This document shows positions 1 through 37,552 of a stretch of DNA of 43,974 nt, piece by piece. A model generated the notes under the pieces. It did not search any database. It saw only the letters and a list, made by a program, of their open reading frames with translations, and had not been told where the DNA came from. The DNA is from Nemertoderma westbladi. Its lineage: Eukaryota; Animalia; Xenacoelomorpha. The stretch spans positions 1-43,974 of the forward strand of contig JAUCBJ010000993.1 of the NCBI GenBank assembly GCA_032718475.1. Reading direction: 5' to 3'. The translations under genes were made by a program, and so were the position numbers. Within the stretch, counting starts at the first letter, position 1, and each line of letters starts with the position of its first letter.

Positions 1-32
1 AGGAATGCATACGAAGTGAGTTGCGTCTAACA

Positions 33-2830
33 CTAATTTTTGTTTGAGGCAGGAGACAAATTATAATCTCCTGTCTCGATGCGTGTCTCTTCTAATAACA
101 CAATATCTTGGACCGGTCGGTCCAAGGTGTGTAAACCATTAGTTTTACACTTCTTTGGGTGCGGACACTTGCACCTAATTTTCACAGTGACTGTGCGCAC
201 TATATTTTGCGCGTCTGGGTGTATGTGCAAGATAACTCCCGTCTCCCAGTACTTTCTCTTGACAATTGGTTCGGTTATCAATACATAGTCTCCTCTTTGG
301 AGGCTCCGAACCGTTTTGTACCACTTTGTTCTGGTAGATATGGTGGGAAGATAGTATTCCCGCCAATATTCCCAGAATGTGTACGCCACAAATTGAGTCA
401 CTTTCCAGCTCTTACGACTATATAGGTCGGCACTAATGGGTTCTGATGCCGGCACAAGAAATGCTGGACTCTGCATTAGCAAATGATTCGGTGTTAATGC
501 AACACCGTCTGGCAACATAGCTATCGGCCTCGAGTTCAGTGTATGCTCGATTTCGATGAAAGCTGTGACCAGTTCGTCGTCGGTAAGTTGTTTGTTTACA
601 GGCAATGTCTTAGCAATAGCCTGCTTTATGGAACGAACCAAACGCTCCCAACTTCCTCCTCTCCAAGGACTTTCTGGAGTATTGAATCTCCACTCTACTC
701 TTTGCGGCAAAAGTGCTGCAGAAATTTCTTTATTCTGCGCTGCTCTGTGAGCCGCGTTCAACTCGCTATTCCCTCCGACAAAGTTTGTACCCTTATCAGA
801 GTAGAACACCTTTACTAGTCCTCTCCTGGCCATAAATCTCTTTAAGGCCAGGAGCAGAGATTTGGTCGACATGTCTGCCACACGCTCGATATGTATGGCT
901 CTACTAGCCATGCATGTCAGTAGCAGGCCCCATCGCTTGTGGGTCAGCCGTCCACTCTTTGCCTCAATCGGACCAAAACAATCCACCCCTGTATTCGTAA
1001 AGGGTGGGTCATATGCCTGCACTCTCGCTTCCGGGAGTTCAGCCATCTCCTGTTCCAATACTCTGGCGTTCACCCTCTTGCAAACCAGACAGGCGTCGTA
1101 CATAGTGCCTACTGCCCTGCTTGGCTGCAATAGAATGAATCGCTGTCTCGCTGCCGACAAACAGTGTAACTTTCCCGCGTGATGCAACCTCTTGTGTATA
1201 TCCCATAGAATCGCTCTTTGCAATTCTATTGGGTGACTAGGGATTATCACTGGGAACCTGAACTGTGAGTTTATGTCGACAGTCTGGATTCTCGATCTAT
1301 GACAAATTAAACCCTTATGGATTAATGGACTCCATTTTCTAAGGGGTTTATAGAGAACTGGTCGTTGAGCCGATAATAGATGAGAATTCTTTGGGAAGGC
1401 ACACATTTGATAATGTTTCAAATGCTTTAATTCCGCTTGATCAATCTCATCCTCTGTCAGAGGTTGTTTCAATTTCTGAATTCGCTCACTATTAGCGCTC
1501 ATTTGTTCTCCCAAATGTTTCGAATGTTTTAAACAAAGGTACGAAATGTATCGGCTTAACCACGCAGTTCTTTTACAAATTGTCAGCCAAGAGGCAGACG
1601 AATTTAGTAATTTGTCATAAATACTACATGGCTCTAATGCCAGCGACGGTTGTCCGCTAATTAATGGAAGTTTCGAATCCAAACCCGCAGGTTTGGAAAC
1701 CAAAGGCTCCATTGTGTCGGTCATTTTCTGTCCGTCACTTACCAACTGTGACCCTCGGGTAGTCTGTAAGGGTGGTTTTATGTCATAACTTACCCTTCCT
1801 GACCTAGTAGTCACGTAAGTCTGTTGGTCTGACAGGTCTCCGGGCCGCTCCAATGACTCTTCAGGCCGCTCCAATGACTCTTCAGGCCGCTCCAATGACT
1901 TGAGTTTGGCTTTAGACTTTGACTTAGAGACTTTCTCCACCTTGACTTCTGCATCTTCTGGCATCGGATTGGTCACTATCTTCAGTCGCTCTGGCCAATG
2001 TTCCTGTGTCCTCGTTAGAAAATCAGGTCCATGCAACCAAAACTCCTGCGACTCTTCCTGACAGAATTCCGCCGGCATTGCACCTCTCGAAGTTATGTCG
2101 GCTGGGTTTAACACTCCCGGACAATGTCTCCATTGTTCCTTCGTCGAAAAATCGACGATCTGAGCGCGTCTGTTGGCCACAAATGTCTTTAGTGCAATAT
2201 TGTCGGCCGCAATGTATACTAACACTAAGGATGCGTCCGTCCAATAAAATAAGGTCAACGTCGTGTCTAACTCCTCTATTATCTGCTTACTTACCTCAAC
2301 TGAAACTACTGCCGCCTGTAACTCTGCACGAGGGACAGTCATGTATTTGACCGGCATTGTCTTTGATCTAGAAGTCACAAAAGCCGTCTCAAACTTGTCC
2401 TGACTTACCTCTCGGCGAAGGTAGGCTACCATACCAAAGCCGGTGTCACTTGCGTCACTAAATAGGTGGAGTTCGAGATCAGCTGGAAATACCAGCTGAT
2501 TCGGAAAGTAGGAACGGGGTACATCTATGTTTTTCAATAGATGCAACTCGGCTTCCCACTCTCTCCACTGCTTTGCATGTATAGGAGATATTGGTTCGTC
2601 CCACTCTAGGTCGGACAACCAAATTTTCCTCATGCACGCTCGTGCCTGTAATATTACCGGACTGATAAAGTTCATCGGGTCAAATAGTCTACTTAATGTC
2701 GATAAGCAAATTCTCTTTGTCAAAACTTTGTCTGGACTACTGGGCTCAAATCTAACTCTTACCTGGAACTTTCTGTTGGTTCCAAGCGAGTCCCAGTACT
2801 CGCGCCATGGGGATGGGTTCTACCCCCAAT
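33..2830 (-). CDS. pol: BEL/Pao Pol C-terminal part: RT connection, RNase H, integrase (HHCC + DDE) and C-terminal domain
   Basis: ORF 33..2723: LHLFSDASDTGFG (RNase H), H..LHH...C..C zinc finger, GVDCFGP / YSDKGTNF / WERL catalytic triad. Joined to the RT ORF through two frameshifts near 2855 and 2770; the intervening frame reads ELGVEPIPMARVLGLAWNQ. Confidence 0.92.
1843..1900 (-). repeat. 21-bp tandem repeat, ~2.8 copies, in frame (LERPEES) in the RNase H-integrase linker
   Basis: ggccgctccaatgactcttca starts at 1843, 1864 and 1885. Confidence 0.9.
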
Positions 2831-4423
2831 TCAATGTCTCCGCTCCCGCGATCCTTTCACCGGGAACGATTCTAATAGGGCCTCCGAATTAGTGGTGAAC
2901 TTGGTCAGAGGAAATCCCCCTGTAGCCAAGCACTTCTGCAGGCCGTGAGCCACTTCTATGGCTTGTTCCGCTGTGTCCTTGGACACCAATCCGTCGTCCA
3001 TATAGAAGTTTCTCAATATAGACTCGATAACCTCTACTGGATACTTACCAATCTGGGCTGTTGCCGTTTTCTTTAGAACAAACAGCGTGCCGTTTAGACT
3101 ATCGCGGGCACCAAATATCCTAACGTACATTTGGTATGTAACCACTGGGCCGGATAAGTCTTCATTCTCAAACCAGAGAAATCGAAGGCTATCCTGGTCT
3201 GCCTTACAGGCTCTTACCTGGTGGAACATCGCCTCGATGTCACAAGTAAATGCGAATCGCCGCTGTCTAAAACGCAACAGTATTCCTATCAAATAATTGT
3301 TCAGGTTGGGTCCGTCCATCAACTCTGAATTCAGGGACATACCTCTGTAGACTGCTGCGCAGTCGTTGACTACTCGGACTTTGTCAGGCTTGTCAGGGTG
3401 AGTCACATAGTGGTGTGGGAGGTAATAAGTCTGGTCTGTCACTAAGTCAGGGTCCTCTACCTTCCCAGCAAATCCCTTGGCGAAATAGTTGTTGATCTGA
3501 GCGCAATACTTCTCCCTAATGTCCGGATTCTTCAACAACCGAGCCTTACTCCATTCAATCTTTTCAAGGCTAAGTGTTAGTTGTTCTCCAACTTTAGGAG
3601 GTTGTCGACGCCACAACATTCCAACTTCAAAATGTCCCGTCGGTAGCAGACGTATGGTGTCTTCCATCATCTCTAGCGACCGTTTCTCATCAGCAGACAT
3701 GGCTAGGTCATATCCACCGGGTTCCATTGCGTCCCTATCCAGCCATTCGACGGTTCTGGCTCCTGTCTCGAGGTCCTGGCGTATCAATTCCTTCTGCAAT
3801 TCCTCCTCACTGTATTGGAAAATGTCTAGGTCTCGATATTTAGCCACCTGACCCTCCACTATGTCGGTATAAGTCAAAACGTTACTCAAATAGGTAGCGT
3901 GGGCCGCTGAACCAGACCCATGGGTCTGATAACAGTAGTCCTCGGGTTCACTATCTGTCCGGTCGTTATGAAGTGGTTCTGACAACCTAACATTATCGGG
4001 AATCAACTCCTCGTCCGACTCGCTAACGTCACTATAATGGTCAATACAGGTTCTCCTAAACTCGTCTATGTCTGGTGGTTCTAGTAACGGTGGTTCAGTT
4101 ATAGGCTGTAATCCGTCGTATCTATCTATTGGCTTGTCGCCACCTGTAAACTCATAAGACATGGGTACTCGTGTATACCAACCTAATATAGTCCTATGGG
4201 CATGTGGTCCATTTACATGCGGCTCAGCTGGTCTCGTTTCCCATATCTGGTGTGCGATCAGCTGTTCTGCACCAATCAACATAGAAACATTCCTATAACC
4301 TACCTGGTGTCTCGGTACTCTGAGTTTGTCAAAATACTCCTGTGCTATGGGACTCATCGGCGGCACCTTACCTAACTGCCTGCTGAACCCCTTCATAGCT
4401 AGACACTTAAATCCGTCCAATGG
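2831..4423 (-). CDS. pol: BEL/Pao Pol: C-terminal half of the aspartic protease plus reverse transcriptase (putative 3' exon)
   Basis: VSMLIGAE and HRTILGW (second half of the BEL protease), then YYLPHH, KVRVVNDCAA, SLNSELMDGP, CDIEAMFHQ, IFGA and NFYMDD (RT). The ORF has no ATG ahead of these protease residues. Confidence 0.9.
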   Translation of the reverse strand, partial: PLDGFKCLAMKGFSRQLGKVPPMSPIAQEYFDKLRVPRHQVGYRNVSMLIGAEQLIAHQIWETRPAEPHVNGPHAHRTILGWYTRVPMSYEFTGGDKPIDRYDGLQPITEPPLLEPPDIDEFRRTCIDHYSDVSESDEELIPDNVRLSEPLHNDRTDSEPEDYCYQTHGSGSAAHATYLSNVLTYTDIVEGQVAKYRDLDIFQYSEEELQKELIRQDLETGARTVEWLDRDAMEPGGYDLAMSADEKRSLEMMEDTIRLLPTGHFEVGMLWRRQPPKVGEQLTLSLEKIEWSKARLLKNPDIREKYCAQINNYFAKGFAGKVEDPDLVTDQTYYLPHHYVTHPDKPDKVRVVNDCAAVYRGMSLNSELMDGPNLNNYLIGILLRFRQRRFAFTCDIEAMFHQVRACKADQDSLRFLWFENEDLSGPVVTYQMYVRIFGARDSLNGTLFVLKKTATAQIGKYPVEVIESILRNFYMDDGLVSKDTAEQAIEVAHGLQKCLATGGFPLTKFTTNSEALLESFPVKGSRERRH

Positions 4424-5624
4424 CAAAGCTCTCTGTTCTTGTCGAGTCGCTTGTGTCCTTCTGGGCTCCTCCCCAAGGCGCACCCACGAGGCGGACACTG
4501 TCCCACCACCCCTGGGGCCAGTCTGACTGATGTTATTATCAGACCGGGCCGGAGGGTGGCCTGATGCTTCCCGGGTTCTGTTTTCGCTCCCCCGATCACA
4601 CCGGCACAGCTCTTCAGTGTAGCCAGATGGTCGGCTACTGTCAACTTACTGTGGCCTGACTGTACATTGAGCCAACTCAGAGAGTCAACCGGCGGGTGGA
4701 CCAGTCGATAGCGATCAAGCACCAAGGTCGCCCTTGGGCCTAAGCGACGGTCTTGTCCCAAGTGGGCTTGCGCTACCCAACATGGAATATTGACACGTTT
4801 TCACCCGCTCGCCGGCAGTATTGAGGGGAAGTAAGTTCCGCAAACAATACTGACTAGCTCGAAAGCTAGGAACAAGTAACCACTTACCAGTCGCTGTACA
4901 CGTGTACTCAACAGATGTTCACAATATCAAGTACACTACGGTAAACACAAAATCTGACACATACCATGCACACACAGATGACATAATCGGGAAAGACAAA
5001 AATCGAGGTCAAAATCGGAGGGGACAAATTGTATCGACCAACAACCAAATCGAGGGTACCTTATTTTGCCGTCAGGGCAAAATAACTTTGTGTGCACAAA
5101 GCATGCTGGGGCGCAGTAAAATATGGTCCTACTAATACCAGTGGCGACTGAGCCAACTGGCAAGGTTTCCCATACTCATTCGCAGTGGCCATACATACAA
5201 TCACGTGTACTCACATACCCACAGCAACAGAAAGCTCATCTCAGACCTAAACACACTCCAAAGACCAATCAACTGAGCATGGAGACAAAACATATAGTAT
5301 CAAAAAAACGGAACAGCTGACTGTCAATGGCACACATCCAAGCCCCAAAGCTAACTGCCACTGCTCGCCGACATACAAATCATAGTTCACACCACATGAA
5401 CCACAAATCACGCCATGCCACCACCCCTACTGTGTACAGGACTGGCAGTATGGCAACAGGCCGACTAGACGGTACCACGGCACCATGGCAATTCATGGTT
5501 CGCTAGACACGAGGGCCTTCAGTATCTCCCTTGCGCTTAGAGACAATTTAACGTGCCCCCAGACCCTCACGAGTCCGCCGCCGCCTGCTATAGGCACCCC
5601 TATAGAGACCTCACCTCTTTAGGT
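4424..5624 (-). ncRNA. Putative group I self-splicing intron (subgroup ID-like core) interrupting the retrotransposon protease
   Basis: Minus strand: P3 GCGGGUG (4808-4802) / CACCCGC (4698-4692). P4 ACG(U)GUC / GACCGU. P5 UUCCA/UGGGA. P6 with a CCAAGG-GCGA-CCUUGG tip. P7 U(C)GACUG (4708-4702) / CAGUCA (4662-4657). P8 GGUUGACUC-UCU-GAGUUGGCU. J8/7 CAAUGUA. P1 exon GCAU / IGS GUGC (5597-5594) with a U-G pair. Core is well supported; the 3' splice site (G4424, alternative G4466) is less certain. Confidence 0.85.
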
Positions 5625-7538
5625 ATGCTGGTCTCTCGGAAGTAGGGAGTCTAGTTCTACCGAAATCCTGTGTCCCTTGAGGTCCCCTACCCCGTGCATA
5701 GACTTCAACTCTATTTGTATTTCCTCTGCGTCCTGGAAGCTAGAAACGGCTCTCGCCACTTCCTCGTCGATATACGATAATGTGGACGCAGTGTCCAACA
5801 TCACATATATTCGCTTAGATCCCTTATCGCCAGTAAGTTTCACCGGAATCACGCTAAATATTTCCGATGTGGCCGATGATAAATACGTCCGCGCGCTGGT
5901 CGATGAACTATCCGCGGTGAAACCTTGGCAGGTCACCTCTCTCGCGCTCGACTCGCCATCCTCGTCCGACGAACCTGGTTGATAACCATCGTCCTGAATG
6001 CCGGTATACGTATTTCTTCTTATCGATACGGGTTCTCTGCTCCCCTTCCTTTGAGGATTTCTCTGTAAGTAACGGTCCGTTGGGGTGTGGAAATCCGCAT
6101 GTAGCAACTTGTGATGTAGTCTGCCGCATTCCATGCATCCGTCCTTGCTGTCCGGGCACTGCCGCCGTACATGACCTGGCGCAAGACATGCCCAACAGGT
6201 ATCCAACGTCCGCACTTGAACTTTTCTCTGTTCCGAATTTAATTCTTTGAACCGTCTGCAACTATCTAACTTATGGTCGTCAGATCTTACCTCCTTTAGT
6301 AAGCAGAATTGGCAACCTACAAATTGATCCGGCAACTCCTGTTGCTTTAACATAGGTCTATCTAACTGCTCACCTGACCATACTCGCGAGTCTGATCTAA
6401 AGGCTGGGGTACTCGAATTATATCTGTCTACTGAGTTAAATGTCACAGTGGTCCTGTCATCGTCAAAACTTACCATAGACTTACCGGTAACAGGTTTAGA
6501 CTCCCTCATATTATCCTCTGAGAAGTTTGATTTCATCTCTGCTACTGCGTCTGTGGCTATCATGTCATGGATATGCTGAAGTGTCAACACCTTCCCTTGA
6601 CCTTCCAACTTATTCTCTAATTTGCGCCATTTCTCGCGCATGTTTAAGCGTCTAATTACGCTCTTCAAAACTTCGGCGTGATCACCATGATGAGGTAGAT
6701 TCACTGTCCTCAAGATGTCTAATGCGTTTGAAATAGCGTTCGCTAAGTTCAACAGCTCTAACGGAGTTGTAATCCTTCCGCCCTTACCCAAGTCTTCCAC
6801 TATCAACTGTGCCATCTTGGTTTTATTCCCGTAGATGTCGCTAAGCGTCTTCATTGCCAACTCGAATGCTCTTTCATTGCCAACGAAGTTGTCAGCAATG
6901 GCTCTAGGTTCTCGATGGAGCATTTGAAGCAAATAGTTGAACTTCTTGTTGGGAGTAAAGGTGCTGTTGGTTAGCTGTTCGTCGACATAGGTTTTGAAAG
7001 TCCTCCAATGCTTATGGTTGCCCATAAACTTCTGGGGTTGTTGCGTCGGCAATCCTTGCCTAGCAGCAAACTTACCTATGTCCCTAAGGGTTGCGTCGTT
7101 CCAGGTTAACAAATGGTTTAGTTCTGCAGGGTTGTTAAGTCTGGTCCTTTCCCGGGGATTAAAACTTACCTGCTCCACGTCCGTCCTTCTTTCCTTATAG
7201 TTTCGGGACTTCTGACGTCTCATGTCTTCCTCTTCATCGCTTGATTCTGTGTCTGTCCTTAGCGCTCGCTTTGGTTTGCGCGCCGAGGCCCTGACCCAAG
7301 CCTCCTGTATAAATTTTTCGGCCGAGTTTTCGAAATCGGGATTATGAATCGTAGGGACAGGCATTCTTACCTGAGATCTATGTGGTATAGTGGCCTCCGA
7401 TATGCGTACTCGTTGACTAGGTTGGACTTTATCTAACTCAGGCCTGCTAGGATTAGAATTACTTCTTACCTGGGCTGCTTCCTTTAACCGTAGGTTACTA
7501 AGCATGTCCGTTATAGGTTGGATGTGCGGCAATATCAC
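5625..7538 (-). CDS. gag: BEL/Pao Gag plus N-terminal half of the aspartic protease (putative 5' exon)
   Basis: KFMGNHKHWRTF...KFNYLLQML capsid-like region; three Cys/His knuckles (CQFC..H..C, CWAC..GH...C, CMECGRLHHKLLH); IYVMLDTASTLSYI catalytic motif. The unspliced frame stops at TAA 5621-5619. Confidence 0.92.
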
Positions 7539-9499
7539 TTACACTTACACTAGCACTTAACTCATCCCTTGTAATAAATTCCTGGCTAGGGTTCTGTTGT
7601 ATAGTCAGCTCTATCTGAGTAATCCGCTGTCTCTCATATGATCCCTATTCCGGTTTAACCCGGAAGTTCTCCATCGAACTGGGTCGGCGCTCCGTCCGCG
7701 TATTCCAAACCCGCGGGTTCGGTTCGCCCAATACTCGACCCGTCGGAGTTTCTCCTCTAAACTCTTCGTTGTCGCGTTCAGTGTGTAGTGGTGCAGTGCG
7801 ATGATGACGTGGATCTTGCGCAATGGGTGAAGCACTAATACCAACTGGTGTGCGATATGTAGAGAACGGTTTAGCGATCAGAGTACTCGTAATAGCTGGA
7901 ACGGGTATAGGAATTCTGGTCGTCTTCGACTCGCGTATGGTCGGAGTTCTCGCTTCCTGTTCGGCCTTCTGCAGTGCGAACAGTTCTCGCAACTCAGTAC
8001 CTATACTCGCCCCACATTCTTTGATCATTCGCATCCCCTTCTCGGCGATTTCATTCACCTTCCTAGTCCGTTCCTTGCTCTCTAGGTTTAATCTCGCACT
8101 TTCCAACTGCGCCAGTTTACGTTCTTCTTCTTCCACGCGCGCCTTTTCCTCATACAACGCCTGTCGCTCCTTCTCGATCTCGAGTTCGCGTTCCTTGCGT
8201 TTGCGTTCAAGCTGTAGTTCGCGTTCCTTCTGTTCGCGTTCGAGTTGGAGTTCGCGTTCCTTCTGTTCGCGTTCAAGTTGGAGTTCGCGATTCCTTGCAT
8301 TCGCGTTCAAGTTGGAGTTCGCGTTCCTTGCGTTCGCGTTCTGCTTGTTCCCGCTTACCTTTATCTTCCAACTCTCGCAACTTCGCGTCTAACTTACGTG
8401 TGCGCTCCCGTTCCCGCTCGGCTTCTTTCCGTGCTTCCGATGCATGCAAAACTTCCGCCTGTTGTTCGTCCAGTCGGCGTCTTCTCTCCTCCGCCGAGTT
8501 GTGAGAAACAAGGGATCTAGCACATATAACTTTCCCTCGCGCGTGACTAACCTGGGAATCGCCACTGTCTCTAGATGCGTCATCGGGTGGAGTTAACGTC
8601 CTCTGTTGGATGTTCTCTGTCGTCGGTAGCACCTGGCCCGGTACCACCACTCCACTCTGCATCAACCAGCCGGTAACTTCCCGGTGATACCTGCGCTCCT
8701 CCTTATCTTGCGTCTCTTCTCGCTCCACTAAGTTTCTCGACTCTGCGTCACTCACCTGAGTCGCCTGCGCTTGTGATGCCCATAGCAGCCAGTTATCCAT
8801 CCTAACTCATCGAAATCGCTCCGATAACGCGCAGTGCTCCAACAAGGCTGCTAAAACCCTGTCGTAAACCCTCGTCGCCACGTCGCTCGACTGAGACTCT
8901 ACTGCTCTCTTTGCCAGGACTGCAAGCTCCTCCGTCTGCTTGAATAACGCTGAGTTGTATCCTCTTCTAATCTCTACTAACCCTTCCCTTCCGATGTTCG
9001 CTGAGTCGGCTAGCATCTTCCTTACCTTGTCCGCCGTCCGAGTTATATGTCCAGCATGCGCGCGAAGTTTCTTCTTTATCGCGATGTCTAGTTCTCTCTC
9101 ACTTACCTGACTCACACTTGGTGGACTTGAAGGATTATTTCGGGAACTACGGATACTCCTTACAGCCGCTGGGACCATGGCACTTACCATACCCACAGGC
9201 CTGGAAACCGGGCTCCGGGCTCTCGCTTCTGCTACACTACCCTCCCTATCACTCACCTCTGGCCGGGTTGCTGTACAATCCTTCCTTACAGTAGCGGTAG
9301 GGGGTCCTAATACTATTACCTCCGGTGGTTCTTCCTCACTAGTTACTGTCTCGTCCTCCTGTTCACTTACGTCAGCGTCACTCACTGCATCGTCATAGTC
9401 GGCATTGTCGTCAACAGTAATATTAACGCTATCGTCAGTCGGCGGTCCAGCCGCCGTCTCATAGCTGGCCTCTAGTGCCTCTTTCTCTGAGACACTCAT
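7539..9499 (-). pseudogene. N-terminal acidic/coiled-coil part of the BEL/Pao polyprotein, broken by stops and frameshifts
   Basis: ATG at 9499. In-frame TGA at 8809-8807 (ORF 8800 continues in the same frame), an extra base near 8290 inside a 33-bp repeat, TAG at 7647-7645, and a further frameshift near 7540-7500 into the Gag ORF. Confidence 0.75.
8170..8345 (-). repeat. 33-bp coding tandem repeat (ERELQLEREQK), about 4-5 copies
   Basis: Repeated gagttcgcgttccttctgttcgcgttcaagttg variants; encodes a charged coiled coil. Confidence 0.85.
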
Positions 9500-9886
9500 A
9501 GTCTAAATAGTATTTGCCTTCCGGCAAAATCTCGCAAAATATTCGAGATATATATAATTTAATCGAAATACACGATTAAATTATTTGTCAAATAATCAAT
9601 TTGTCCAAAATGTCAAATAAATTCGCAATGCAATATTGTGAATTTAATAGGATCTAATTATAGCAAATACCAATACAATATTTAAACAAAATATTGTTCT
9701 ATAGCTATTATGTAGTATTTAAATACCGGTATGACACAAACAATTTTTTGAATCTAATACAAAATATTCAAAATAAACTTGCCACCCAAATATTTCTAAT
9801 TTTAGATATATAACTCTAATCAACGCAATTTTAATTTCAAATACTATATGTATCCACTAGCGCGTGGCTACATCTTCGGGTTGCGA

Positions 9887-9910
9887 CTCTCTCTCTCTCT
9901 CTCTCTCTCT
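9887..9910. repeat. (CT)n microsatellite in the BEL 5' leader
   Basis: About 12 CT units. Confidence 0.9.
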
Positions 9911-11230
9911 AACTCGAGCGATTCAAAAACCCATGGTCGGCTAAACCTAACTATCCTAACTAATAAATTGAGTTCAGCTTCGCAGTTAAACAACCGATAA
10001 TTTTTTACTGCTTCCACAAACACAATGGTGCCAACAGAACAACTAACCTTGTTTGCTGTGAGATTCCACGTCCGCGTCCAAAGTTTCAGTCTTTTCGCTG
10101 ATTGCAAACCGAACCCGCAGACCCACACGAACCCCAAAGTCAGAAGCTCCGTCTTGCCATGTATCTCCAGATGGTATAAAACAACTAAGCGGTTATCTAA
10201 CATACCGGTACAAAACTCTAGATTTTATCACTAAATAATTTTGACCAAAACTGCCGTCCGCTAATATATTTTACTAATTTCCTATGGCTCCTGCTAATTT
10301 CTTGTTCCTTTCTCTACCGATTACTCGATAGAGAGCTAACTGTTCGAATATATGAGCCACGCGGGAATAACCAAAACAATAACCCGAATCGGCTCCCTAA
10401 GCTGACTTAAGACGAGTGTGAGAGACTTTACACTCAGAGTATATTCCTACGGCCTAATTCTAATCACAAAGACTGGGGTTCCCTAACAGAATGTGTGAAT
10501 GTGAGAATATTTAAATAATCAAAAATCGGTGCAGTATTTATTTCGGGACTCAAACTTACCTGCGGCTGGCTTTAGACCAGCAATTTACTAATGCGCGCTA
10601 TATACTGTATACTACGATGTGACTTATTGTCCGCTAATTCAAATAACCGCTCAGCGTGAATAGTGTACGGTACTCTAAATTATTACCTTAACTACCCTCC
10701 GCTATGCTGCGTACAAATTCTTAATTTTACTAATTAATTACAGTCACAAATATGTAACAGCGTACTAATTACTAAGTATTCCAGAGTGCGCAATTCTAAT
10801 TTATTACGCAACGGGTTACACTAGCAACAGTCTAAAATACCGTATTATTTTCGACCTAATCAGTAATTAATTACAGTAAACTAAGAAATAGAAATCAATC
10901 AAAGGAAAAGAACACCTATCTAAGCATTCGTGATTTATTAGGCGCACTTTAGTAACACACCAATCAGCGTAACAATCTATAGTTCATACTTACCAATTTT
11001 AGTTCTTAACGCACAATTCACAATCAACAGTCACGACTCGCAATCTACAGTTAACTAGCAATTCGCAACGTAAAGCCGCAAGTCTCTCCCGGCCACATCT
11101 AGGCTTCCCAACTAACCCGATTCCTGTCCCCCTAATACTACAAAATAGAGACAAAATCTGGATCATCAGCCCCTAATTACTGCGCCGGCGCACCTAACCC
11201 GCTTTACGCCGCAAACTTTCGCACGCAATA

Positions 11231-11242
11231 GTACTCCCACCA
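11231..11242 (-). promoter_or_regulatory. Candidate primer-binding site of the BEL element
   Basis: TGGTGGGAGTAC, one base after the ...CAACA end of the candidate LTR; cognate tRNA not identified. Confidence 0.5.
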
Positions 11243-11243
11243 A

Positions 11244-12033
11244 TGTTGCTCGTCCTTGAATCCTCCGCACTCCCTTCATCGCTAACCCCCCAATGCGCCC
11301 GCCGCGCTTACCGGTAACCTAGCCCTCCATCAGAATGAATAGCTACCGTAGCGGCACATGCAAATCACAAAGTCTGACAGTCTAAGAAATCCCGTAGGAT
11401 TATTGTCGAAAGGAATCACATAGAACCATTTACTAAGGGGTAGAAATCATAGTTCCAATTTGTAATTAACAGTAATCGTTGGGATTGATTGAAAAACACA
11501 AGCAAGAATCAACAGAAATTGCAAATTAGCGAATCATTGCAAGAAAATCAAAAGGGCAGTAATTTACACAAAAACTAAGCATCGAATAATAATAGTTGAA
11601 CACTAAGGGTAACTGAAGTAAGGGGTAAGGTAATCGGGAATCAGTACAGACACACCGGCAAAACGCCAATTTATAGGTGATTTGAGAAGGGTGATGCAAT
11701 CGATCTCTCATTGGCTCTCCAATCCGAGCTATCATTAGACCAACCTGGAAGCAGTTAGGCCAATAAGAGAGCCGGATTGTGAACCTATTGCTCCTTGAAA
11801 TCGCAAATCGTTACCATAAAAGGTAATTTTCCCGATGCTTAATTTGGCGGTACTAATAATATCATGCACAAAGGTTAATTTAGCGCAATTATAGAGAAAA
11901 TTAAATCCAATAGCTAGCCTCATCAAGGCTAATAACAGCAAGCCCATATCCAGGGTCCAACAAGAACTTGCTACCCTGGAACTATCTACTTATATCCTAT
12001 TACAAAATTACATAGGTAGGGCTACATACTACA
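11244..12033 (-). repeat. Candidate 5' LTR of the BEL element (~790 bp)
   Basis: Minus strand begins TGTAG and ends CAACA, followed by a PBS-like TGG. Internal CCAAT (~11712) upstream of TATAAA (~11672). The second LTR is not in the window, so the boundaries are unverified. Confidence 0.6.
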
Positions 12034-12109
12034 AAATGGATGAGTTCAAAATATATGGGTGTTTCAATTTCCTTATCTACATGTCATTGCGCGTTATGCC
12101 TTATCTAAA

Positions 12110-12222
12110 TAATTATACTGCATCACGGACTAATATATGATACTATATAATGGACTAATATATTATACTGCATGATGGACTAATATATGTACAGTATAAC
12201 GGACTAATATATTATACTGTAT
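12110..12222. repeat. Degenerate ~27-bp minisatellite
   Basis: ggactaatatat(at)tatactg repeated about 4 times. Confidence 0.7.
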
Positions 12223-12978
12223 GTAGGTACAGCGCCATATACCGTAACAACCTAACTTCTGACAAATTCCTGGAAAGGTGCATTCTAGGTCAAAACCGCA
12301 ATGAGTCGGTTCATTCTGTGAACTGTGCAAAGAGCAGGTTTGTTTCCCTGCACCTTTCAGATTTCAAGTCGCTTACGCTGTACTTAGTCATAATAGAGGA
12401 GCCTCAGTTGATCAACTTATTCTGAAGAAGTTGGGTCTTGAAGAGGATGATGGAATTATGGCTGCCAGAGGGATAAAGAGAAATAAGGAGCGACTCAGGA
12501 TGTCCCTAATGGAGTCTGCCAAGAAAAAGAAAAGGAAGATTGCACATAAAGACTATACACCCGGTGGTTTTTGAATATTGTTATAGTTATAGATATACTG
12601 TATATCTAGTGAAAACTTCGAAATAATATATATATATAATATACAATATATATTAATTGGTTTTATATATCCAATTTTTTTTTTAAATAAACTATAAATA
12701 TGCCTGAGAGAATGTCAAAATTTCAAACTACCAATGATAATAGATTTTAAGAAAAATACAATTAAATATATTGTCTCAAAATTGTAACGTTCCCCTTAAA
12801 TTATAAATTAACAACAACACCAGAAAAATTCAGTGCATAACAAAGTTTATTGTACACTGTAGGACTGTCAAAGATATATCAGTAGTTTTCCGCACATGCA
12901 GTACATAAAATTACAAACTTTTGTGCTAATTTTAATTTTAATAATATAATTTTTTTTAAATATTGCTTTTATATTTAG

Positions 12979-13401: not shown

Positions 13402-13593
13402 TGTCATATCCATATAAAAGCATAATAATCTATAGATATGATGTATATTGCTCTATACATTGTGCAGTCGTACCAGTGTACACAAGTACTGCAGTGTACT
13501 GCCGTACTGATATAGTACTGTAGTATATATGTGCATACCGGTAATCCTCATCCTATATCATAGGCCATGGCCTAAGTAATACTGGACACGACA
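13402..13593 (-). repeat. Gypsy 3' LTR (192 bp)
   Basis: Matches 18777-18968 except tgtcat vs tgttat; purine tract at 13604-13594 on the minus strand. Confidence 0.96.
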
Positions 13594-13819
13594 TCACTTC
13601 CTCCAACAAGTAATTAAAACAAACAAGAGAAATAATAGGTATTGATGTACTTATGACTTACTGGTTAATTTCACATACGGCTTAATATCACATTATCACA
13701 TACCACCAAACAAATTAGTTAGTAATAGATTGTCCTAGTTAAGCGTTTGTCAGGCTGTAATCAATGTTATAAATGTTACTATGAATGTTCTATATTACTG
13801 TTTCAAAATTGTTTCAATC

Positions 13820-16800
13820 TTAATAACGAATATATGGTCCCAAGTCTCTAGGTTTTCGTTGTCGTGATGGTCTAGAGTTTTCTACTTGTCCCTGCAGTAA
13901 TTCATGTTCATCATTGCAGTTACCGTCTGGTTCGGCTTGGGGCATACTACTACTACTGCTACTACCACTACTGGATACTACTACTACTAGTAGTAGTAGT
14001 AGTATCGGTCTGGAATCAACATCATCGTCTAAATCTTCCCCTATGTCTTTATTGTACAAATCCTCAGAGGACGCATCACTTTTCTCATTGGTCTTGCTGG
14101 AGTGGTAGTGTTTCATATGGGTTGGATTTCGTCGCAGTGTAGACCCATGTTTTCCTTGTAGTATCATGGATTCTCCCTTCCGGCCAATTATTGTATATGG
14201 TGAGGGGAGCCACGTAGTTGAATATCCCTTTTCTACTCGGTTAAATCTGCGAATAAGGACAATATCCCCAACTTCAAAATCTCTTTCCTTAGCATGGCGT
14301 CGATTATCTGTATATTCTTTCATTCTCCTCTTATATTTCTGATCACGTTGTTGAACTGCTACATTGATATGTGGATTTGGTGTTAAAGCTTGGTTTGATA
14401 GCAATGCAGGGAGTTTTGTTTTTAATGTTCGATGGAACATTAATTCAGCGGGTGAGAATCCAGTGGCAGGATGAGGTGTAGATCTATAGTTGAGTTGGAA
14501 TGTCTGGAGATTGGTTTGCCAACTCTTATCTTCAACGTGGCAACTCTCTATGAATTTTCCCAGTGGCTGGTTAAGCCGTTCAATTTCCCCATTGGCGGAA
14601 GGGAATCGTGGGCTGATCAAATGTACTTTTATGTCTCTTTGTTTACAATACCGTCCGAATTCCTGTGAGCGAAAAGCAGGCCCATTATCAGTTATGATAT
14701 CTTTTGGAAACCCAAATATACTGAAAGTTCTTTCACACGCCTCTATCACATGTTTCGCATTTTCTGAATTCATAGGGATAACAATAGGATAACGAGATCT
14801 GTAGCAAATCATAGTTAATATATGTTTATGATCAACAGGGCCTAGAAAATCCATTCCTATCTTTGACCATGTTTCATTGGGAATGACTGTAGGTTTCAGT
14901 GGTGAGGGTTTTGCAGGTTTGCCTGTAGCTTGGCATGGTAAACACCTTGTTATATAATTTTCTGTATCCTTGTTTAAATTGGGCCACCATACCGTTTCCC
15001 GTAGGAGTTGTTTGGTACGTGTCATGCCTTGATGACCTTCATGGGCTATCTCAATACAGAGGTCACGCAATAGCTGGGGTATAACGATTCTCTTCCCCCG
15101 TAATATTATATTATCGTGGGTGATGCTGAACTCATGTCGATCTGAGTAATATGGCTTCAACACATCTTTGTCTTTGTCCCATGCATCATTCATAATAGCG
15201 GAATGCAGAATAATCAAAGAAGTGTCCTTCATAGTATGTTCAATTATTGTTTCAAGGTTCAGATTAAATGGTAAATTGCTTTGGATTATTGCTCTGACAT
15301 ACTGTTCTGTATGTTTTCCTTTCTGTGGGCATGAACCTTTTGGTGTTTGGCGCGATAATATGTCTGCATAGTTGTCCTTACCTTGGATATAAGATAACTT
15401 ATAATTATATTCCCCTTGTATTTTCAGCAACATGCGTTCTATGCGAGGTGTTGGGTTACCGTTGGGTGCGAAAATTCGCAATAGTGGTTTATGGTCTGTT
15501 TGTATGTTAACTGGTTGTGGTGCTCCACGAAGATAGATGTTATATCGCTGCAATGCCGAAGTTATTCCCAGTGCCTCTCTTTCTGTTTGGCTATATCGAC
15601 TTTCAGTTTCTGAAAGAGACCGATGGGCAAAAGCAACTGGCTGATCAAGTCCTGATGGTTGGGTCTGGCTCAGAATTGCACTAATTGCTGTGGGTGATGC
15701 ATCAGTGGTGAGTGTTGTAGGAAGATCACGTTTGAAATATGCCAATGTTCTAGGATTTGATATTTCTTCAATCAGCTTCTTCCAAGCTATGAGGGCTTCA
15801 TCCGACATTTCGAACACTTTGTTCTTTGCAAGTAGACTCTGAAGAGGTGCTTTAAGAATGGCATAATTTGGGATGAAAGGTGACAACCACCCAAGCAATC
15901 CAAGACTGGACTTCAGTTCAGTCTTGGTAGTTGGAATTTTTAGGTTTTTTACTGCCTCAATTTTCTTCTCACAGGGTGTCAGCCCCGTGTTTGTAAGTAG
16001 ATGCCCCAGGAATTCAACGCTTGTCTACAAAAATACACACTTTGATCGTTTTAATTTTATGTTTCGTTCTTTGCATCTTGCTAACACTTGCTGCAGACGC
16101 TTTAAATGTTGCTGCTTCCCATAAACCCACACAATTATGTCATCACTGGCATTTCTTGTTCCATCAATCCCTTGTATGGAACGTTCCAACTCACGATGGA
16201 AAATTTCTCCACTGGTTGATACACCCATAACCAGAGTAGTATAACGTTTCATTCCTTTGTGAGTGGCAAATGTTGTAAGTGGTCGTGAATCAGGATGTAA
16301 ACCAATTTGATGGTACCCACGATCACAATCTAAATGTGAGTAATATAAAGTCAAGTCATCAGTCATATTGGATGGATTAGGAGGTTCTTCCAAGGCAATT
16401 TGATCAACAATTTCTTCGAGTGTCGGTATCGGATGCCGTTCGCGTACTAGATGTTTATTAAGCTCCCGGGCATCAAGCGTAATCCGAACTACGGGAAGGT
16501 TTTCATCATCTGTGCGGTTGGGTTTAATTTGAAGTACCATTCTTGAAACCCATGGGGTAGGACCAGTGGCAGTTTCAATCATATTAGCCTCCTCCTGGAT
16601 GGAAAGTTCTTTTTCACACGGGCGGCGGAGATGAAATGGAATACGTGATGCACGTACTGCGACAGGGTCTGCATCTTCTCTGAGGTGTAATTTCACTTGT
16701 ATTGGGGTGCCATTTTCGTCACACATGAGACCTGTGGCTGAGAAAACATCGGAATATTTTGATATAATATAGTCCAGATGTGATGTGTCCAATGTTTTGT

Positions 16801-18217
16801 GAGTTTTGCATTCTAATAATTGTCGCACTCCTATCTTCATTCCTCTTTCTTTCACACTAGGTGGGCCAACCCGTAGCAAATCCAAAGCCGTGGCAGATTT
16901 GTATCCTAATAGAGATAAGTCTTGTGTACTAACAACAATAAACTTTACCTTAGCTGCTTGCCCACAGGCTTCCACTGTTGCTCGCACTTTTCCAACGATT
17001 TTTAGCGGAGTTTTTGAATTGTATGGATATATGATACTTTTAGTGGGTGTTAGATTCATGTATTCACCATGTTGTTGTAGTGTTTTGTATGCAGAATATG
17101 TGAGGATATTACATTCTGCTCCAGAATCAATCGGGATAGGGATGCTTGTATTGTTGATATTTACATTGTAACAAGGACCCGCAGTAGAAATCTTATGAAT
17201 TTTGTGTTCCTTAAATAGAGCATTGATGCATAAATCACCATACTCATCAGATGATGTGCTTTCTTCGCTATAAATCGTTTCAGTTTCTTCATTGTCGTCG
17301 ACTAATTGTCGTAAGTTTCGTTTAGTTTTCATACCTACTACTTTCATGTGTCCTATTCCACCACATGCATTACAGATGATTTTTGCTGATATTCGACTAT
17401 CAGGAACTTTGTGATCTGTATTCCCACATCGGTAACAATGTGTATATTGGGGTGTGCTGACAGAATTTGCAGTTGGCGGCTTGTTCTGGTATTTGTAATT
17501 TACCATTTTTCGCTGCCATTGCTGTTCAGCGTTTGCTTTTGGCCTTGAATATCGGTTTTTAAATTTAGCTATTTTATTAACTTCAAGGTCATCAATGTCG
17601 TCACTTTGTCCCACTAGTTTTGTAGATCGTGCGAACTCTTCAATATCTAGTGCTTGTTTAGATGTCTGTTCTAGCGTTTGAGCAATTTGAATACATCGTG
17701 TTAGTGTACAAGCTGCAGCGTCTTCCTCTGCCACTCGAAGAAATCGTTGTAATAATTTCTTGGATCGACATCCTGCTACAGCGCGGTCACGTATATTTCG
17801 CTCTAAAGCATTGCCAAAATTACAATACTTGGCCTGTTTCCAAAGTCGTGCTATATATGAGCTGAATAACTCATTTGGCTCTCGTGTTAGTGAGTTAAAC
17901 CTGAATGTTGAAAATACTTCATTTTCTCTTTTGCCGAATTCATTATTTAGTGATGTACGTGCTACTGTGTAAACATTTTCATTAGTGTCAGGCACAGGTT
18001 GTGGAATAGTCAATGTAACAAAGCGGTCCTGTACCTCTTCACCAGATATATGTAGAAGAATGCTTTTCATTTGTTCAGGGTCTTTGACACCCAGTGCAGA
18101 CAAATATATGTCGAAAGTGTTTAGCCACTTTTCCCAGCGAGGGGTTACGGAACTGACATCATATGAAATTTTAAATGGTTCTGGTGCACGTAGGGAGATA
18201 TGTCTGGCTTCGGCCAT
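13820..18217 (-). CDS. gag-pol: Gypsy single-frame Gag-Pol polyprotein with one premature stop (TAG 16027-16025)
   Basis: ORFs 18217..16025 and 15898..13820 share a frame. Zn knuckles CYRCG/CNACG, protease IDSGA, RT LDCDRGYHQ..NASDDII, RNase H TTDAS..EREAL..TDHKPL, integrase AHEGHQG..CLPC, GMDFLGP, TDNGP, EIER. Confidence 0.94.
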
Positions 18218-18776
18218 CCCTTAAAACTGTAACGTGTACCGTTACTGTGATTTTGTAATAACTTATATCTCAGTATTTATCTTAACTACGAACTGTCAGA
18301 AGCGGCCTACAGTATTGCTATTACTGTATTGGCTTTGGCTCCTATTTTATGTCGAGAACAATTCCTGTAATCATGGAACTGCTATAATATAATATGCATG
18401 CTAGGTTAGGCTGCTAGGCCTAGGTTGTTAATATGAAAATTTTACAACTGTACTGTTGTATATTGTAAGCGCTGTAAGCTGTAAGCGATTGTAGGTTAAT
18501 AAATACCGGTAGTCTGGTAGTTGTGGGTTAATAATACCGGCAGCTGTACAACTGTAATGTTGTACCAAATAGGTAGGCCTATACTTGTAAGCAAATGGCC
18601 TGAGTTTTCTCTGTACCGGTGCCAGAATCTTTTATCACTAAATCCAGAGTCACCAGATCAGTTTCTCCTTTCGCAGTACTGGTAAGCCTAAATCTGTAAA
18701 TGGCGTAAGCCAGTAAGAAGCTTAAGTCTGTAGGTAGAAATGTCACCACCACGTGGATCGACCGACTCTTCGCCAA

Positions 18777-18968
18777 TGTTATATCCATATAAAAGCATAA
18801 TAATCTATAGATATGATGTATATTGCTCTATACATTGTGCAGTCGTACCAGTGTACACAAGTACTGCAGTGTACTGCCGTACTGATATAGTACTGTAGTA
18901 TATATGTGCATACCGGTAATCCTCATCCTATATCATAGGCCATGGCCTAAGTAATACTGGACACGACA
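18777..18968 (-). repeat. Gypsy 5' LTR (192 bp), followed by the PBS at 18775-18766
   Basis: Direct repeat of 13402-13593. PBS TGGCGAAGAG is one mismatch from TGGCGACGAG, the complement of the tRNA-Ser(GCU) 3' end. Confidence 0.96.
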
Positions 18969-19149
18969 TATATTTACGCAAGTGATACCGTAATTTACTT
19001 TACGTACAATTACATTTTGTTACGTTTTGTGTAGCTAATGTTTTTATTGTTTGTTACTAAACCGGGTACACTTCCTTCTAGTTTCCCTATTTTTGATATG
19101 ATAGATTAAAAACTATCATTTTAATTTATCAAAAAATTGCAAAATGGCA

Positions 19150-21875: not shown

Positions 21876-23657
<1,782 letters not shown>

Positions 23658-30448: not shown

Positions 30449-32148
30449 ATTAAATAAGGGAGACAACAACGTAGCCAGTTGTGAGTGAGTTAATGAAATA
30501 TAATTAAATAAGGGAGACAACAACGTAGCCAGTTGTGAGTGAGTTAATGAAATATAATTAAATAAGGGAGACAACAACGTAGCCAGTTGTGAGTGAGTTA
30601 ATGAAATATAATTAAGGGAGACAACAACGTAGCCAGTTGTGAGTGAGTTAATGAAATATAATTAAATAAGGAGAACAACAACGTAGCCAGTTGTGAGTGA
30701 GTTAATGAAATATAATTAAATAAGGGAGACAACAACGTAGCCAGTTGTGAGTGAGTTAATGAAATATAATTAAATAAGGGAGACAACAACGTAGCCAGTT
30801 GTGAGTGAGTTAATGAAATATAATTAAATAGGGAGACAACAACGTAGCCAGTTGTGAGTGAGTTAATGAAATATAATTAAATAAGGAGGAGACAACAACG
30901 TAGCCAGTTGTGAGTGAGTTAATGAAATATAATTAAGGGAGACAACAACGTAGCCAGTTGTGAGTGAGTTAATGAAATATAATTAAATAAGGGAGACAAC
31001 AACGTAGCCAGTTGTGAGTGAGTTAATGAAATATAATTAAATAAGGAGAACAACAACGTAGCCAGTTGTGAGTGAGTTAATGAAATATAATTAAATAAGG
31101 AGACAACAACGTAGCCAGTTGTGAGTGAGTTAATGAAATATAATTAAATAAGGGAGACAACAACGTAGCCAGTTGTGAGTGAGTTAATGAAATATAATTA
31201 AATAAGGGAGACAACAACGTAGCCAGTTGTGAGTGAGTTAATGAAATATAATTAAATAAGGGAGACAACAACGTAGCCAGTTGTGAGTGAGTTAATGAAA
31301 TATAATTAAATAAGGAGAACAACAACGTAGCCAGTTGTGAGTGAGTTAATGAAATATAATTAAATAAGGGAGACAACAACGTAGCCAGTTGTGAGTGAGT
31401 TAATGAAATATAATTAAATAAGGGAGACAACAACGTAGCCAGTTGTGAGTGAGTTAATGAAATATAATTAAATAAGGGAGACAACAACGTAGCCAGTTGT
31501 GAGTGAGTTAATGAAATATAATTAAATAAGGGAGACAACAACGTAGCCAGTTGTGAGTGAGTTAATGAAATATAATTAAATAAGGGAGACAACAACGTAG
31601 CCAGTTGTGAGTGAGTTAATGAAATATAATTAAATAAGGGAGACAACAACGTAGCCAGTTGTGAGTGAGTTAATGAAATATAATTAAATAAGGGAGACAA
31701 CAACGTAGCCAGTTGTGAGTGAGTTAATGAAATATAATTAAATAAGGAGAACAACAACGTAGCCAGTTGTGAGTGAGTTAATGAAATATAATTAAATAAG
31801 GGAGACAACAACGTAGCCAGTTGTGAGTGAGTTAATGAAATATAATTAAATAAGGGAGACAACAACGTAGCCAGTTGTGAGTGAGTTAATGAAATATAAT
31901 TAAATAAGGAGAACAACAACGTAGCCAGTTGTGAGTGAGTTAATGAAATATAATTAAATAAGGAGAACAACAACGTAGCCAGTTGTGAGTGAGTTAATGA
32001 AATATAATTAAATAAGGGAGACAACAACGTAGCCAGTTGTGAGTGAGTTAATGAAATATAATTAAATAAGGAGAACAACAACGTAGCCAGTTGTGAGTGA
32101 GTTAATGAAATATAATTAAATAAGGAGAACAACAACGTAGCCAGTTGT
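30449..32148. repeat. 54-bp tandem satellite, ~31 copies
   Basis: aaataagggagacaacaacgtagccagttgtgagtgagttaatgaaatataatt, with an interspersed variant ggagaac in place of gggagac. Confidence 0.97.
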
Positions 32149-33258
32149 CTGTGAACTCTCTATGAACTCTGTGGTTGTATTAAAGAACGTTGTGTCAATG
32201 TAATAATAATGGATGGCTATGGCTAGCAAGGTAACAATGCAATGCGCCTGTACGCAGTGACTATGGTAAAGAACTCATTAGCATAATTAGATTGGATATT
32301 GCCTTGAATGGACGCCATCTTGAATGGATATGTAGAGTGAAAACACAGGAACATGACGTTGGATTGGGCTTATTTAAGTATCTCTTGAAAAAGTAAATAT
32401 ACCACGAGACTCGTCATGTTGCATTCCATAAGATGTATATATTTTGAATATAATTTTTGATAGTATAATAGGAGTTTTTGCATAAAAACTAGCTTAAAAG
32501 GCGATATTTTTTTGTAAAAAGCCGGGTTTAGCAAGATGAGTTGGTTGGGATGTCAACAAAGCTTCTGATTCGCTGTTTCTGTGGAGACAAAGGGAAAATA
32601 GCTTCAACCATTATAGATTTAACATTAAGTGAAGGGGAATAATGGTTTGTCTTTTTCACAGAATTTTCGCCTGTACATTATTTCGAAAAGTTTTGGGTTT
32701 GATCGCGCGAAAGTGACAGATTCGGAAACTAGATTGAATTTTGCATACAACTTTTTTTTTTTAGCTACTCTTGAGGATCAAGTTTTCTATGTTTATTTTG
32801 CATTTTAAATACTAACTTTCTCCCCACCATTGAACTAATGGTAGTGTTTGAACGAATGAGAGTTCTTCGTTACTAAAATGACATGATGATTACTGACTGA
32901 GCGTGGCTTAGAAACCAGTAGTGTACTCTGAAAATAATGAAAACTTTGGCGGCCTGTAACTTTGGTTGACGTGGATGAAATAGGCTGATTTTAAGTTCAT
33001 TAGAATGTGCGTAATTTTCTCTTTCTGTTCATACTAAGTACTAATTAAAACGATGAAGAATAACCTTATTTGAATTTATAGTTATAATAACATAGTTGAT
33101 ACAATGGATCAAAGGGGGCAGGGGTGTGTATGGTAAGTATTTGTTATAGGCCTATGCATTGCGGCTAAATGCCATGGTATCATTATGTAAATGCTTGTGA
33201 AATGATACTGGTATCGGTATCGGTAAATTGATATCGACATTGATTAGTGATATTGGCA

Positions 33259-35229
33259 TCGATATTGGTTATTGTAATTGGTTATTGATATTGGTTAGTG
33301 GTTATTGATATTGGTTATTGGTATCGATATTGGTTATTGATATTGGTTATTAATATTGGTTATTGGTTATTGATATTGGTTATTTATATTGGTTATTGAT
33401 ATTGATTATTGGTATCGATATTGGTTATTTATATTGGTTATTGGTATCGATATTGGTTATTTATATTGGTTATTGATATTGATTATTGGTTATTTATATT
33501 GGTTATTGGTATTGATTATTGGTTAGTGGTTATTGGTATTGGTTATTGGTATTGATTATTGGTTATTTATATTGGTTATTGGTATCGATATTGGTTATTG
33601 ATATTGGTTATTGGTTATTGATATTGATTATTGGTATCGATATTGGTTATTTATATTGGTTATTGATATTGATTATTGGTTATTTATATTGGTTATTGGT
33701 ATCGATATTGGTTATTGATATTGGTTATTGATATTGGTTATTGATATTGGTTATGGGTTATTGATATTGGTTATTGGTTATTGGTATCGATATTGGTTAT
33801 TGATATTGGTTATTGATATTGGTTATTGGTATCGATATTGGTTATTGGTATCGATATTGGTTATAGAGATTGGTTATTGATATTGATTATTGGTTATTGA
33901 TATTGGTTATTGGTATCGATATTGGTTATTGATATTGGTTATTGATATTGATTATTGGTTAGTGGTTATTGGTATTGGTTATTGGTATCGATATTGGTTA
34001 TTGATATTGGTTATTGATATTGGTTATTGATATTGGTTATTGGTTATTGATATTGGTTATTGGAATCGATATTGGTTATAGAGATGGGTTATTGATATTG
34101 ATTATTGGTTATTGATATTAGTTATTGGTATCGATATTGGTTATTGATATTGGTTATTGATATTGATTATTGGTTAGTGGTTATAGATATTGGTTATTGG
34201 TATCGATATTGGTTATTGATATTGGTTATTGATATTGGTTATTGGTTATCGATATTGGTAATTGATATTGATTATTGGTTAGTGGTTATTGATATTGGTT
34301 ATTGGTATCGATATTGGTTATTGATATTGGTTATTGATATTGGTTATTGGTTATCTATATTGGTAATTGATATTGATTATTGGTTAGTGGTTATTGATAT
34401 TGATTATTGGTATCGATATTGGTTATAGAGATTGGTTATTGATATTGGTTATTGATATTGGTTATTGGTTATTGATATTGGTTATTGGTTATTGGTATCG
34501 ATATTGGTTATTGATATTGGTTATTGATATTGGTTATTGGTATCGATATTGGTTATTGGTATCGATATTGGTTATAGAGATTGGTTATTGATATTGATTA
34601 TTGGTTATTGATATTGGTTATTGGTATCGATATTAGTTATTGATATTGGTTATTGATATTGATTATTGGTTAGTGGTTATTGGTATTGGTTATTGGTATC
34701 GATATTGGTTATTGATATTGGTTATTGATATTGGTTATTGATATTGGTTATTGGTTATTGATATTGGTTATTGGTATCGATATTGGTTATAGAGATTGGT
34801 TATTGATATTGATTATTGGTTATTGATATTAGTTATTGGCATTGATATTGGTTATTGATATTGGTTATTGATATTGTTTATTGATATTGATTATTGGTTA
34901 GTGGTTATTGATATTGGTTATTGGTATTGGTATCGATATTGGTTATTGATATTGGTTATTGATATTGATTATTGGTTATTGATATTAGTTATTGGCATTG
35001 ATATTGGTTATTGATATTGGTTATTGATATTGTTTATTGATATTGATTATTGGTTAGTGGTTATTGATATTGGTTATTGGTATTGGTATCTATATTGGTT
35101 ATTGATATTGGTTATTGATATTGGTTATTGGTTATCGATATTGGTTATTGGTATTGGTTATTGATATTGGTTATTGGTTATCGATATTGGTTATTGGTAT
35201 TGGTTATTGATATTGGTTATTGGTTATTG
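33259..35229. repeat. Complex satellite of GATATT / GGTTATT / GGTATC units (13-mer GATATTGGTTATT core)
   Basis: About 2 kb, almost C-free on the plus strand, with higher-order sub-blocks. Confidence 0.95.
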
Positions 35230-37224: not shown

Positions 37225-37552
37225 TAGTGTTAAATTAACCGCAGATTCCAAATACAGTTACCGTTTTTACATATGATTGGTAGTTCTCGCGATATTGGCG
37301 TTCAAACACAACGTTTTTTGATATTTTACGAAATTTAAGGTATTTTTTATTGAAAAAGCAGACATAACTATTCCCAGTCCGTTTCTGTAACATTAAGAGA
37401 AAAGTTAACTTGTGATACTTCTTTTAGTGTTAAATTAACAGCAGATTCCAAATACAGTAACCGTTTTTACATAAGATTTGTAGTTCTCGCGATATTTGGG
37501 TTCAAAAACAACGTTTTTTGATATTTTACGAGATTTAAGGTATTTTTTATTT
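37223..37552. repeat. ~130-bp direct repeat at ~200-bp spacing
   Basis: ttagtgttaaattaac.gcagattccaaatacagt...aaggtattttttatt at ~37224 and ~37424; also present in copy 2 (43427-43756). Confidence 0.85.

Follow-up and report, generated by a model that had tools for sequence, protein, structure and literature searches.

Nuclear group I introns, of the IC1 and IE types, are confined to the rRNA genes of microbial eukaryotes according to two reviews from 2013 and 2024 (PMC3679873, PMC10964413). The intron at cob-i393 of fungal mitochondria is reported to belong to group ID (PMC7285627), group I introns are reported from Polinton-like viruses of protists (PMC12220804), and IStrons combine a bacterial group I intron with an IS200/605 or IS607 transposon (PMC13565253). 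BEL/Pao retrotransposons are discussed for metazoans only in the accessible part of another paper (PMC6238403). The literature searched (mostly open literature, supplements aside) contained no group I intron reported from a retrotransposon, in agreement with the original prediction, which did not know such a case to be described. In contrast to the rRNA genes of those reviews, the intron described here interrupts a protein-coding gene of a retrotransposon present in many copies, and the genome is likely that of an animal.

The window, by which we mean the whole stretch of 43,974 nucleotides that was analyzed, carries on the minus strand of positions 1-9500 a BEL/Pao element with the Pfam domains DUF1759 (Gag), protease, RT, Peptidase_A17/RNase H, integrase and DUF5641 in this order. 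The proposed assignment of the host to the BEL/Pao LTR retrotransposons is borne out by its DUF1759, Peptidase_A17 and DUF5641 domains. The Gag frame passes the catalytic DTAS and ends at the TAA 5621-5619; the remainder of the protease and the RT are encoded in a frame that is open from 4645 to 2831. The parts of the element are the following:

7539..9502, minus: upstream Gag-frame region, broken in the window copy by stops and frameshifts
5625..7538, minus: 5′ exon, encoding BEL/Pao Gag (DUF1759, zinc knuckles) and the N-terminal half of the protease with DTAS; last base U5625
4448..5624, minus: group I intron, 1177 nt, with no homing-endonuclease ORF seen
2831..4447, minus: 3′ exon, encoding the C-terminal half of the protease (IG and LGW motifs) and RT, in the phase of the 5′ exon; the frame breaks near 2820-2831
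33..2819, minus: RNase H/integrase part of the same BEL/Pao element

The 3′ end of the element lies beyond the window. Positions 9500-12250 are its long 5′ non-coding part, with high depth at least to 10500. All named protein matches of the window's two retroelements come from animals, mostly marine invertebrates, with an identity of at most 45%, and it is from these matches that we judge an animal host to be likely. No close relative of the BEL/Pao element was found among the proteins (best 45%) or the metagenome contigs searched. The window also contains a young Gypsy element (13402-18969), the long frame of which has a single stop and the 193-nt LTRs of which are 99% identical, a (GACG)n array of about 445 copies (21878-23656) and satellite blocks with units of 54, 13 and 43 nt, duplicated at a spacing of 6203 nt (30449-43974). 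A Pfam PMT_C3 score on the frame of the 54-nt repeat was discarded as a repeat artefact.

Every string and helix of the group I intron that had originally been read within the protease gene was located on the minus strand where it had been placed. The intron is made up as follows:

5588..5624, minus: P1 region, with the P1 extension (ACC), a conserved hairpin and the guide G at 5595
5450..5589, minus: conserved 5′ (P2-type) domain, common to viral and retroelement relatives (nhmmer E 4e-33)
4876..5449, minus: U/G-rich structured expansion in a peripheral element whose length varies among relatives
4869-4854 and 4852-4816, minus: upstream hairpins
4657..4808, minus: catalytic core P3-P8, with the P3/P7 pseudoknot and a G-C guanosine site
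4808-4802/4698-4692, minus: P3
4798-4792/4752-4747, minus: P4
4787-4756, minus: P5
4737-4722, minus: P6a, with a GCGA loop
4711-4702, minus: J6/7 and P7
4708-4702/4662-4657, minus: P7, with a bulged base and the G-C guanosine-binding pair
4690-4670, minus: P8
4669-4663, minus: J8/7
4662-4657, minus: P7′
4448..4656, minus: P9 domain and further 3′ parts, with the conserved block GUGAUC..GAAAA..GGGAAGC (4600-4566), the terminal motif (4472-4448) and omega-G 4448

A viral collection was scanned with two P7 motifs, which yielded 68 loci with 48 distinct cores, and 32 of the 48 were aligned without the window. The covariance model R1, built from these 32 cores, matches the window with 89.4 bits (E 4.4e-22), the next match in the 44 kb reaching 11.8 bits; the score is partly circular, since the training cores were collected through P7 motifs taken from the window. 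With profiles lying outside the search motif, the 5′ domain is matched at E 4e-33 and P3-P6 at E 5e-11. The match of the P9 profile (E 3e-4) begins at 4668, so that it shares some positions with the end of the motif, and the 3′-end profile alone is not significant on the window (E 7). Because of the profiles outside the motif and the match to the covariance model, the insert is, by sequence comparison, homologous to group I introns in three parts, the start, the core and the end, and contains a structured expansion of about 570 nt between them; the latter (4876-5449) has no similarity to any locus fetched.

In the alignment of the 32 homologous cores, 93.6% of the cells pair (78.9% when shuffled), six of the eight pairs of P3 change on both sides, and the P7 pair left free by the search pattern is CG in 16, UA in 8, AU in 6 and GC in 2 homologs, being UA in the window. 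Unconstrained folding of 4900-4424 recovered P3, P5, P6a and the two upstream hairpins. The predicted strand specificity of the structure was confirmed by folding z scores, which are lower on the minus than on the plus strand both for the core (-2.0 vs. -1.2) and for the middle insert of about 570 nt (-4.6 on this sense strand vs. -1.5). No stop-to-stop frame of more than 93 codons lies wholly inside the intron, and the frame 4402-4800 has no match in Pfam. The insert combines a P3-P8 core that contains the pseudoknot, a bulged P7, the G-C site, U/G ends and restoration of the frame on removal, and its core is common to the cob intron of locus L006 and to other mitochondrial loci, in keeping with subgroup ID. 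A group I intron of the ID type in the BEL/Pao protease is supported by its homologs, by covariation, by the U/G splice rule, by the restored frame and by alleles that lack it.

A search with the Rfam model RF00028, which the original prediction had put forward as a check, gave no match in the window. The same model also missed the motif-matched cores in 20 of 20 loci, cob and viral members included, and in 10 of 10 loci of another set; in 2 of those 20 loci it found other group I introns near the cores that it failed to detect. As the model misses matched cores in all loci tried, the negative result is uninformative: it is a gap in the model and not a defining feature of the intron.

With respect to its boundaries, the insert had been drawn at 4424-5624. 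The 5′ end at 5624 stands, and the 3′ splice site is G4448, 24 nt away from G4424. The latter was rejected because nucleotides 4447-4424 (TRQEQRAL) are exon according both to intron-less DNA copies and to the conserved ..AAGYG with which 23 homologous introns terminate; at the 3′ site, the P9.0 pattern is the same as in most of 28 other introns. The 5′ exon ends with U5625, the guide G is nucleotide 5595 (intron position 30) and the intron ends with G4448. The 30 nt from the splice site to the guide G compare with 27-33 in relatives. A profile built from 61 distant proteases speaks slightly for the G4424 junction, which it matches as one domain (31.0 bits) with a spacing of 103, most proteases having 99-100; the 4448 junction is split by it and has a spacing of 111. 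Intron-less alleles from the same genome were given more weight for the 3′ site than the spacing of distant proteases. The frames flanking the intron are open over 458 and 482 codons in one phase, and removal of the intron keeps the frame. An in-frame TAA (5619..5621, minus) is the second intron codon.

Intron-less copies were found as joints in DNA. The joints 4445>5623, in which a 2-base ambiguity makes it equal to exact removal, and 4444>5622 both delete 1177 nt in X1 and X2, which are one sample; they are among the 15 of 61 joints listed. Exact joints amount to well under 1% of the depth and, among the joints listed, occur in one sample only. Two further joints, in X2 and X3, correspond, among those listed, to diverged intron-less alleles with a C at position -1, and because of this C these alleles are not direct splice products. 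The X4 contigs, which are RNA only by guess, bear another organism label, have a depth of about 5 and leave 4201-4550 uncovered, show no joint at the intron.

Intron-less DNA might also be produced without a ribozyme. The joint 4445>5623 ends GT..AG on the plus strand, with a pyrimidine-rich stretch before the AG, and together with the 2-base ambiguity this would be compatible with a spliceosome acting on the antisense strand or with deletion between 2-base AC repeats. We regard either route as highly improbable: both ends coincide with those predicted independently from the homologs, LTR elements do not use an antisense RNA as template, pairing of both P1 extension and P10 with one guide should lead to an AC repeat, and locus L112 has no such repeat at its ends.

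In three DNA runs from two studies, summed depth is 32,000-93,000 over the insert and roughly 21,000-103,000 elsewhere in the element. We infer from this summed depth, which is not a copy number, a family of roughly a thousand copies, most of them carrying the intron. The depth also bears on a possible chimera or contaminant, which the original prediction had taken into account. An assembly chimera, or contamination with mitochondrial or viral DNA, might be suspected inasmuch as the closest known sequences of the intron class are organellar and viral; it is scarcely credible when the insert is covered about like the rest of the element in all three runs, the insertion is in frame and codon-exact, and the same intron class occurs in other retroelements.

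The condition of the window copy is a different matter. Its usual guide pairs with one of five exon bases, vs. at least four of five in 21 of 27 relatives, and folds with the adjoining linker into a perfect 7-bp hairpin (5605-5588). At 5588-5605, the guide position and the adjacent linker are exact reverse complements of each other, as would result from fold-back copying or be seen in a splicing attenuator. P4 of the core has a bulge that none of the 31 homologs aligned at this place shows, the copy differs at the P3 edge by a one-base indel from about 80% of the sibling depth, and both gag and pol are broken. The window copy is probably decayed.

These data raise the question of whether the intron is dead or nearly so throughout the family, intron-bearing copies being non-autonomous producers of Gag only that are amplified in trans by rare intron-less masters. 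Non-autonomous LTR elements can outnumber their masters, and the mismatched usual guide, the P4 bulge and the broken ORFs of the window copy, together with intron-less lineages with C at -1 in the same genome, fit this scenario. On the other hand, the joints delete exactly the intron predicted by homology and keep U at -1, long open frames flank the intron in one phase on both sides, the core, the 5′ domain and the 3′ end are retained and the peripheral insert still folds. Furthermore, other P1 registers keep U5625 opposite a G at the same site, one with a two-base shift (4 bp, -14.0 kcal/mol) and one upstream (-18.8). Such a dead intron is therefore rather unlikely, though it is the most serious of the alternatives. 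Our preferred reading, to which we attach a fair probability, is that a group I intron of the subgroup ID type (4448-5624, minus) interrupts the protease of a BEL/Pao retrotransposon with many copies, and that this intron likely self-splices from the element's RNA. The unspliced form would give Gag only and usually be packaged, and the spliced form would give the full polyprotein and occasionally be reverse-transcribed.

Relatives of the intron were found in several contexts. Among the motif loci listed, some lie in the mitochondrial genes cox1 and cob and others in large DNA viruses, in genes for capsid, PolB and RNA polymerase. In L006, the motif lies in cob between TAFLG and YVLPYGQ, a site which, by our own count, we take to be cob-i393. 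The suggested likeness to ID introns of fungal mitochondria holds for the core, which is shared; the nearest relatives found belong to a subfamily in giant-virus genes and other retroelements. Chloroviruses also carry group I introns. Introns lie at the 3′ end of large-DNA-virus capsid genes in L023, L015 and L059, L023 having two in tandem with a very short exon between them; some capsid genes are presumably of the iridovirus type, as judged by sequence recognition. A search of viral contigs with the pattern of the 5′ domain gave nothing, and prokaryote genomes gave one match, L174, on a 1.3-kb MAG contig.

With a narrower motif, 105 metagenome loci were obtained, and the two best ORFs of each of the 80 with long flanks were scanned (134 ORFs). 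Retroelement domains were found in the flanks of 13 of the 80, giant-virus capsid or PolB in 11 and histone H3 in one, most of the others matching no family. None of the 105 loci has BEL/Pao flanks, in a search with a positive control. All 20 metagenome loci tried match R1. In L077 (1-331, minus), the terminal intron G adjoins a histone H3 frame beginning RTKQTARK; the 5′ domain was not found on this contig. The subfamily interrupts Gypsy-type elements at differing sites, in RT (L085, L091, L106, L101), in integrase (L078, L084, L112 and L129 at one site; L140) and in gag (L081, L087), and is present in LINE-like or RT-RNase H contexts (L071, L083, L090, L124, L142).

The guides of most of these introns match their sites. 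In 27 distinct introns whose 5′ end is readable, an average of 7.52 of the nine guide bases pair with the intron's own junction, compared with 5.71 +/- 0.18 (maximum of 6.59 in 2000 trials) when guides were swapped among introns under the same register search. The 27 introns have 22 different guides, and U-G is found at the splice site in 18; in L081 and L085, G-C replaces it. The host frame is continuous across the intron in Gypsy integrase (L078/084/112/129), in RT (L085, and L091 by eye) and in L126. Both ends are available for 16 relatives; in 11 of these the longest frames stay in phase (four represent a single site and three are weak), and in 5 they do not. The flanks of L087 and L101 do not look contiguous. 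An Atlas result for L085 is a lead only. In a tree of 33 introns (349 columns, midpoint root), the window intron groups with L126 (bootstrap of 87), which interrupts in phase a long ORF that is weakly envelope-like (Atlas, low recognition). As the tree mixes viral and retroelement members and its deeper nodes have values of 50-84, no donor can be named.

Taking these observations into account, catalysis, a switch between Gag and Gag-Pol, a packaging bias and spread by reverse splicing can be put forward as parts of one mechanism. The intron would likely splice itself out of the BEL/Pao RNA. Because of the TAA at the second intron codon, unspliced RNA would yield Gag plus half a protease; being the majority form, or favoured in cis, it would be packaged, and the intron would so be retained. 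Spliced RNA would yield full Gag-protease-RT-integrase and, when packaged, precise intron-less copies. An intron in an element that replicates through RNA would need some mechanism of retention to persist, and packaging bias is the one that we propose. As the window intron encodes no endonuclease, a likely route of spread is that it inserts itself into retroelement RNA by reverse splicing and is then copied by the RT of that element. At new sites, guides might be rewritten from the template, as hinted by the G-C at -1 of L081 and L085 and by the fold-back hairpin of the window copy. In its widest form the proposal is tentative, and we rate it somewhat below an even chance: an ORF-less family of group I ribozymes would move between giant viruses and eukaryotic retroelements (BEL/Pao, Gypsy, LINE-like), live in animal nuclear genomes outside rDNA, spread by the RT of its host element and gain a new guide at each site, possibly by fold-back copying, acting here as a Gag/Gag-Pol switch.

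These results have several implications. A whole subfamily missed by Rfam occupies other retroelements. Spread by reverse splicing and reverse transcription, unproven according to an earlier review (PMC3679873), becomes testable, and so does the question of whether group I introns can work in animal cells within messages made by RNA polymerase II. Ribozyme splicing and RNA circularisation would also profit from guides that have been retargeted in nature.

When compared with known systems, the window intron has the same P4, J6/7-P7 and J8/7-P7′ sequences as the ID introns of fungal mitochondria, but it is nuclear, lies in a retrotransposon, has no homing-endonuclease ORF that we could see and has longer 5′ and P9 domains. 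The introns of large DNA viruses (capsid, PolB, RNA polymerase) belong to the same subfamily, with the same guide geometry, U/G ends and 60-65% identity over the conserved parts; by contrast, the window intron resides in an LTR element that replicates through RNA, and the subfamily is found at many unrelated sites. It shares the nuclear location with rDNA introns, for the spread of which reverse splicing plus RT has been proposed, and differs from them in occupying a protein-coding retroelement gene. As the retroelement introns do, IStrons make an insertion into coding sequences removable at the RNA level at many unrelated sites, and IStron group B shares a G-C at the 5′ junction with L081 and L085. 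Nevertheless, IStrons are bacterial IA2 introns with their own transposase and a fixed target motif, whereas the retroelement introns are ID-type, ORF-less and eukaryotic, with a guide that varies by site. The possibility that the insert is itself an IStron (IA2 intron plus IS transposase/TnpB) was rejected on account of its ID-type core and of the lack of a long ORF inside the intron.

The BEL/Pao relatives recovered as protein matches have a single continuous ORF, unlike the window element with its intron-split protease. In other elements, the production of Gag or Pol is set by splicing or recoding, as in the spliced gag of copia, the spliced pol of foamy virus and frameshifting. In all these cases, as proposed for the window intron, the ratio of Gag to Gag-Pol would be set; known control relies on the spliceosome or the ribosome, whereas here a ribozyme would act.
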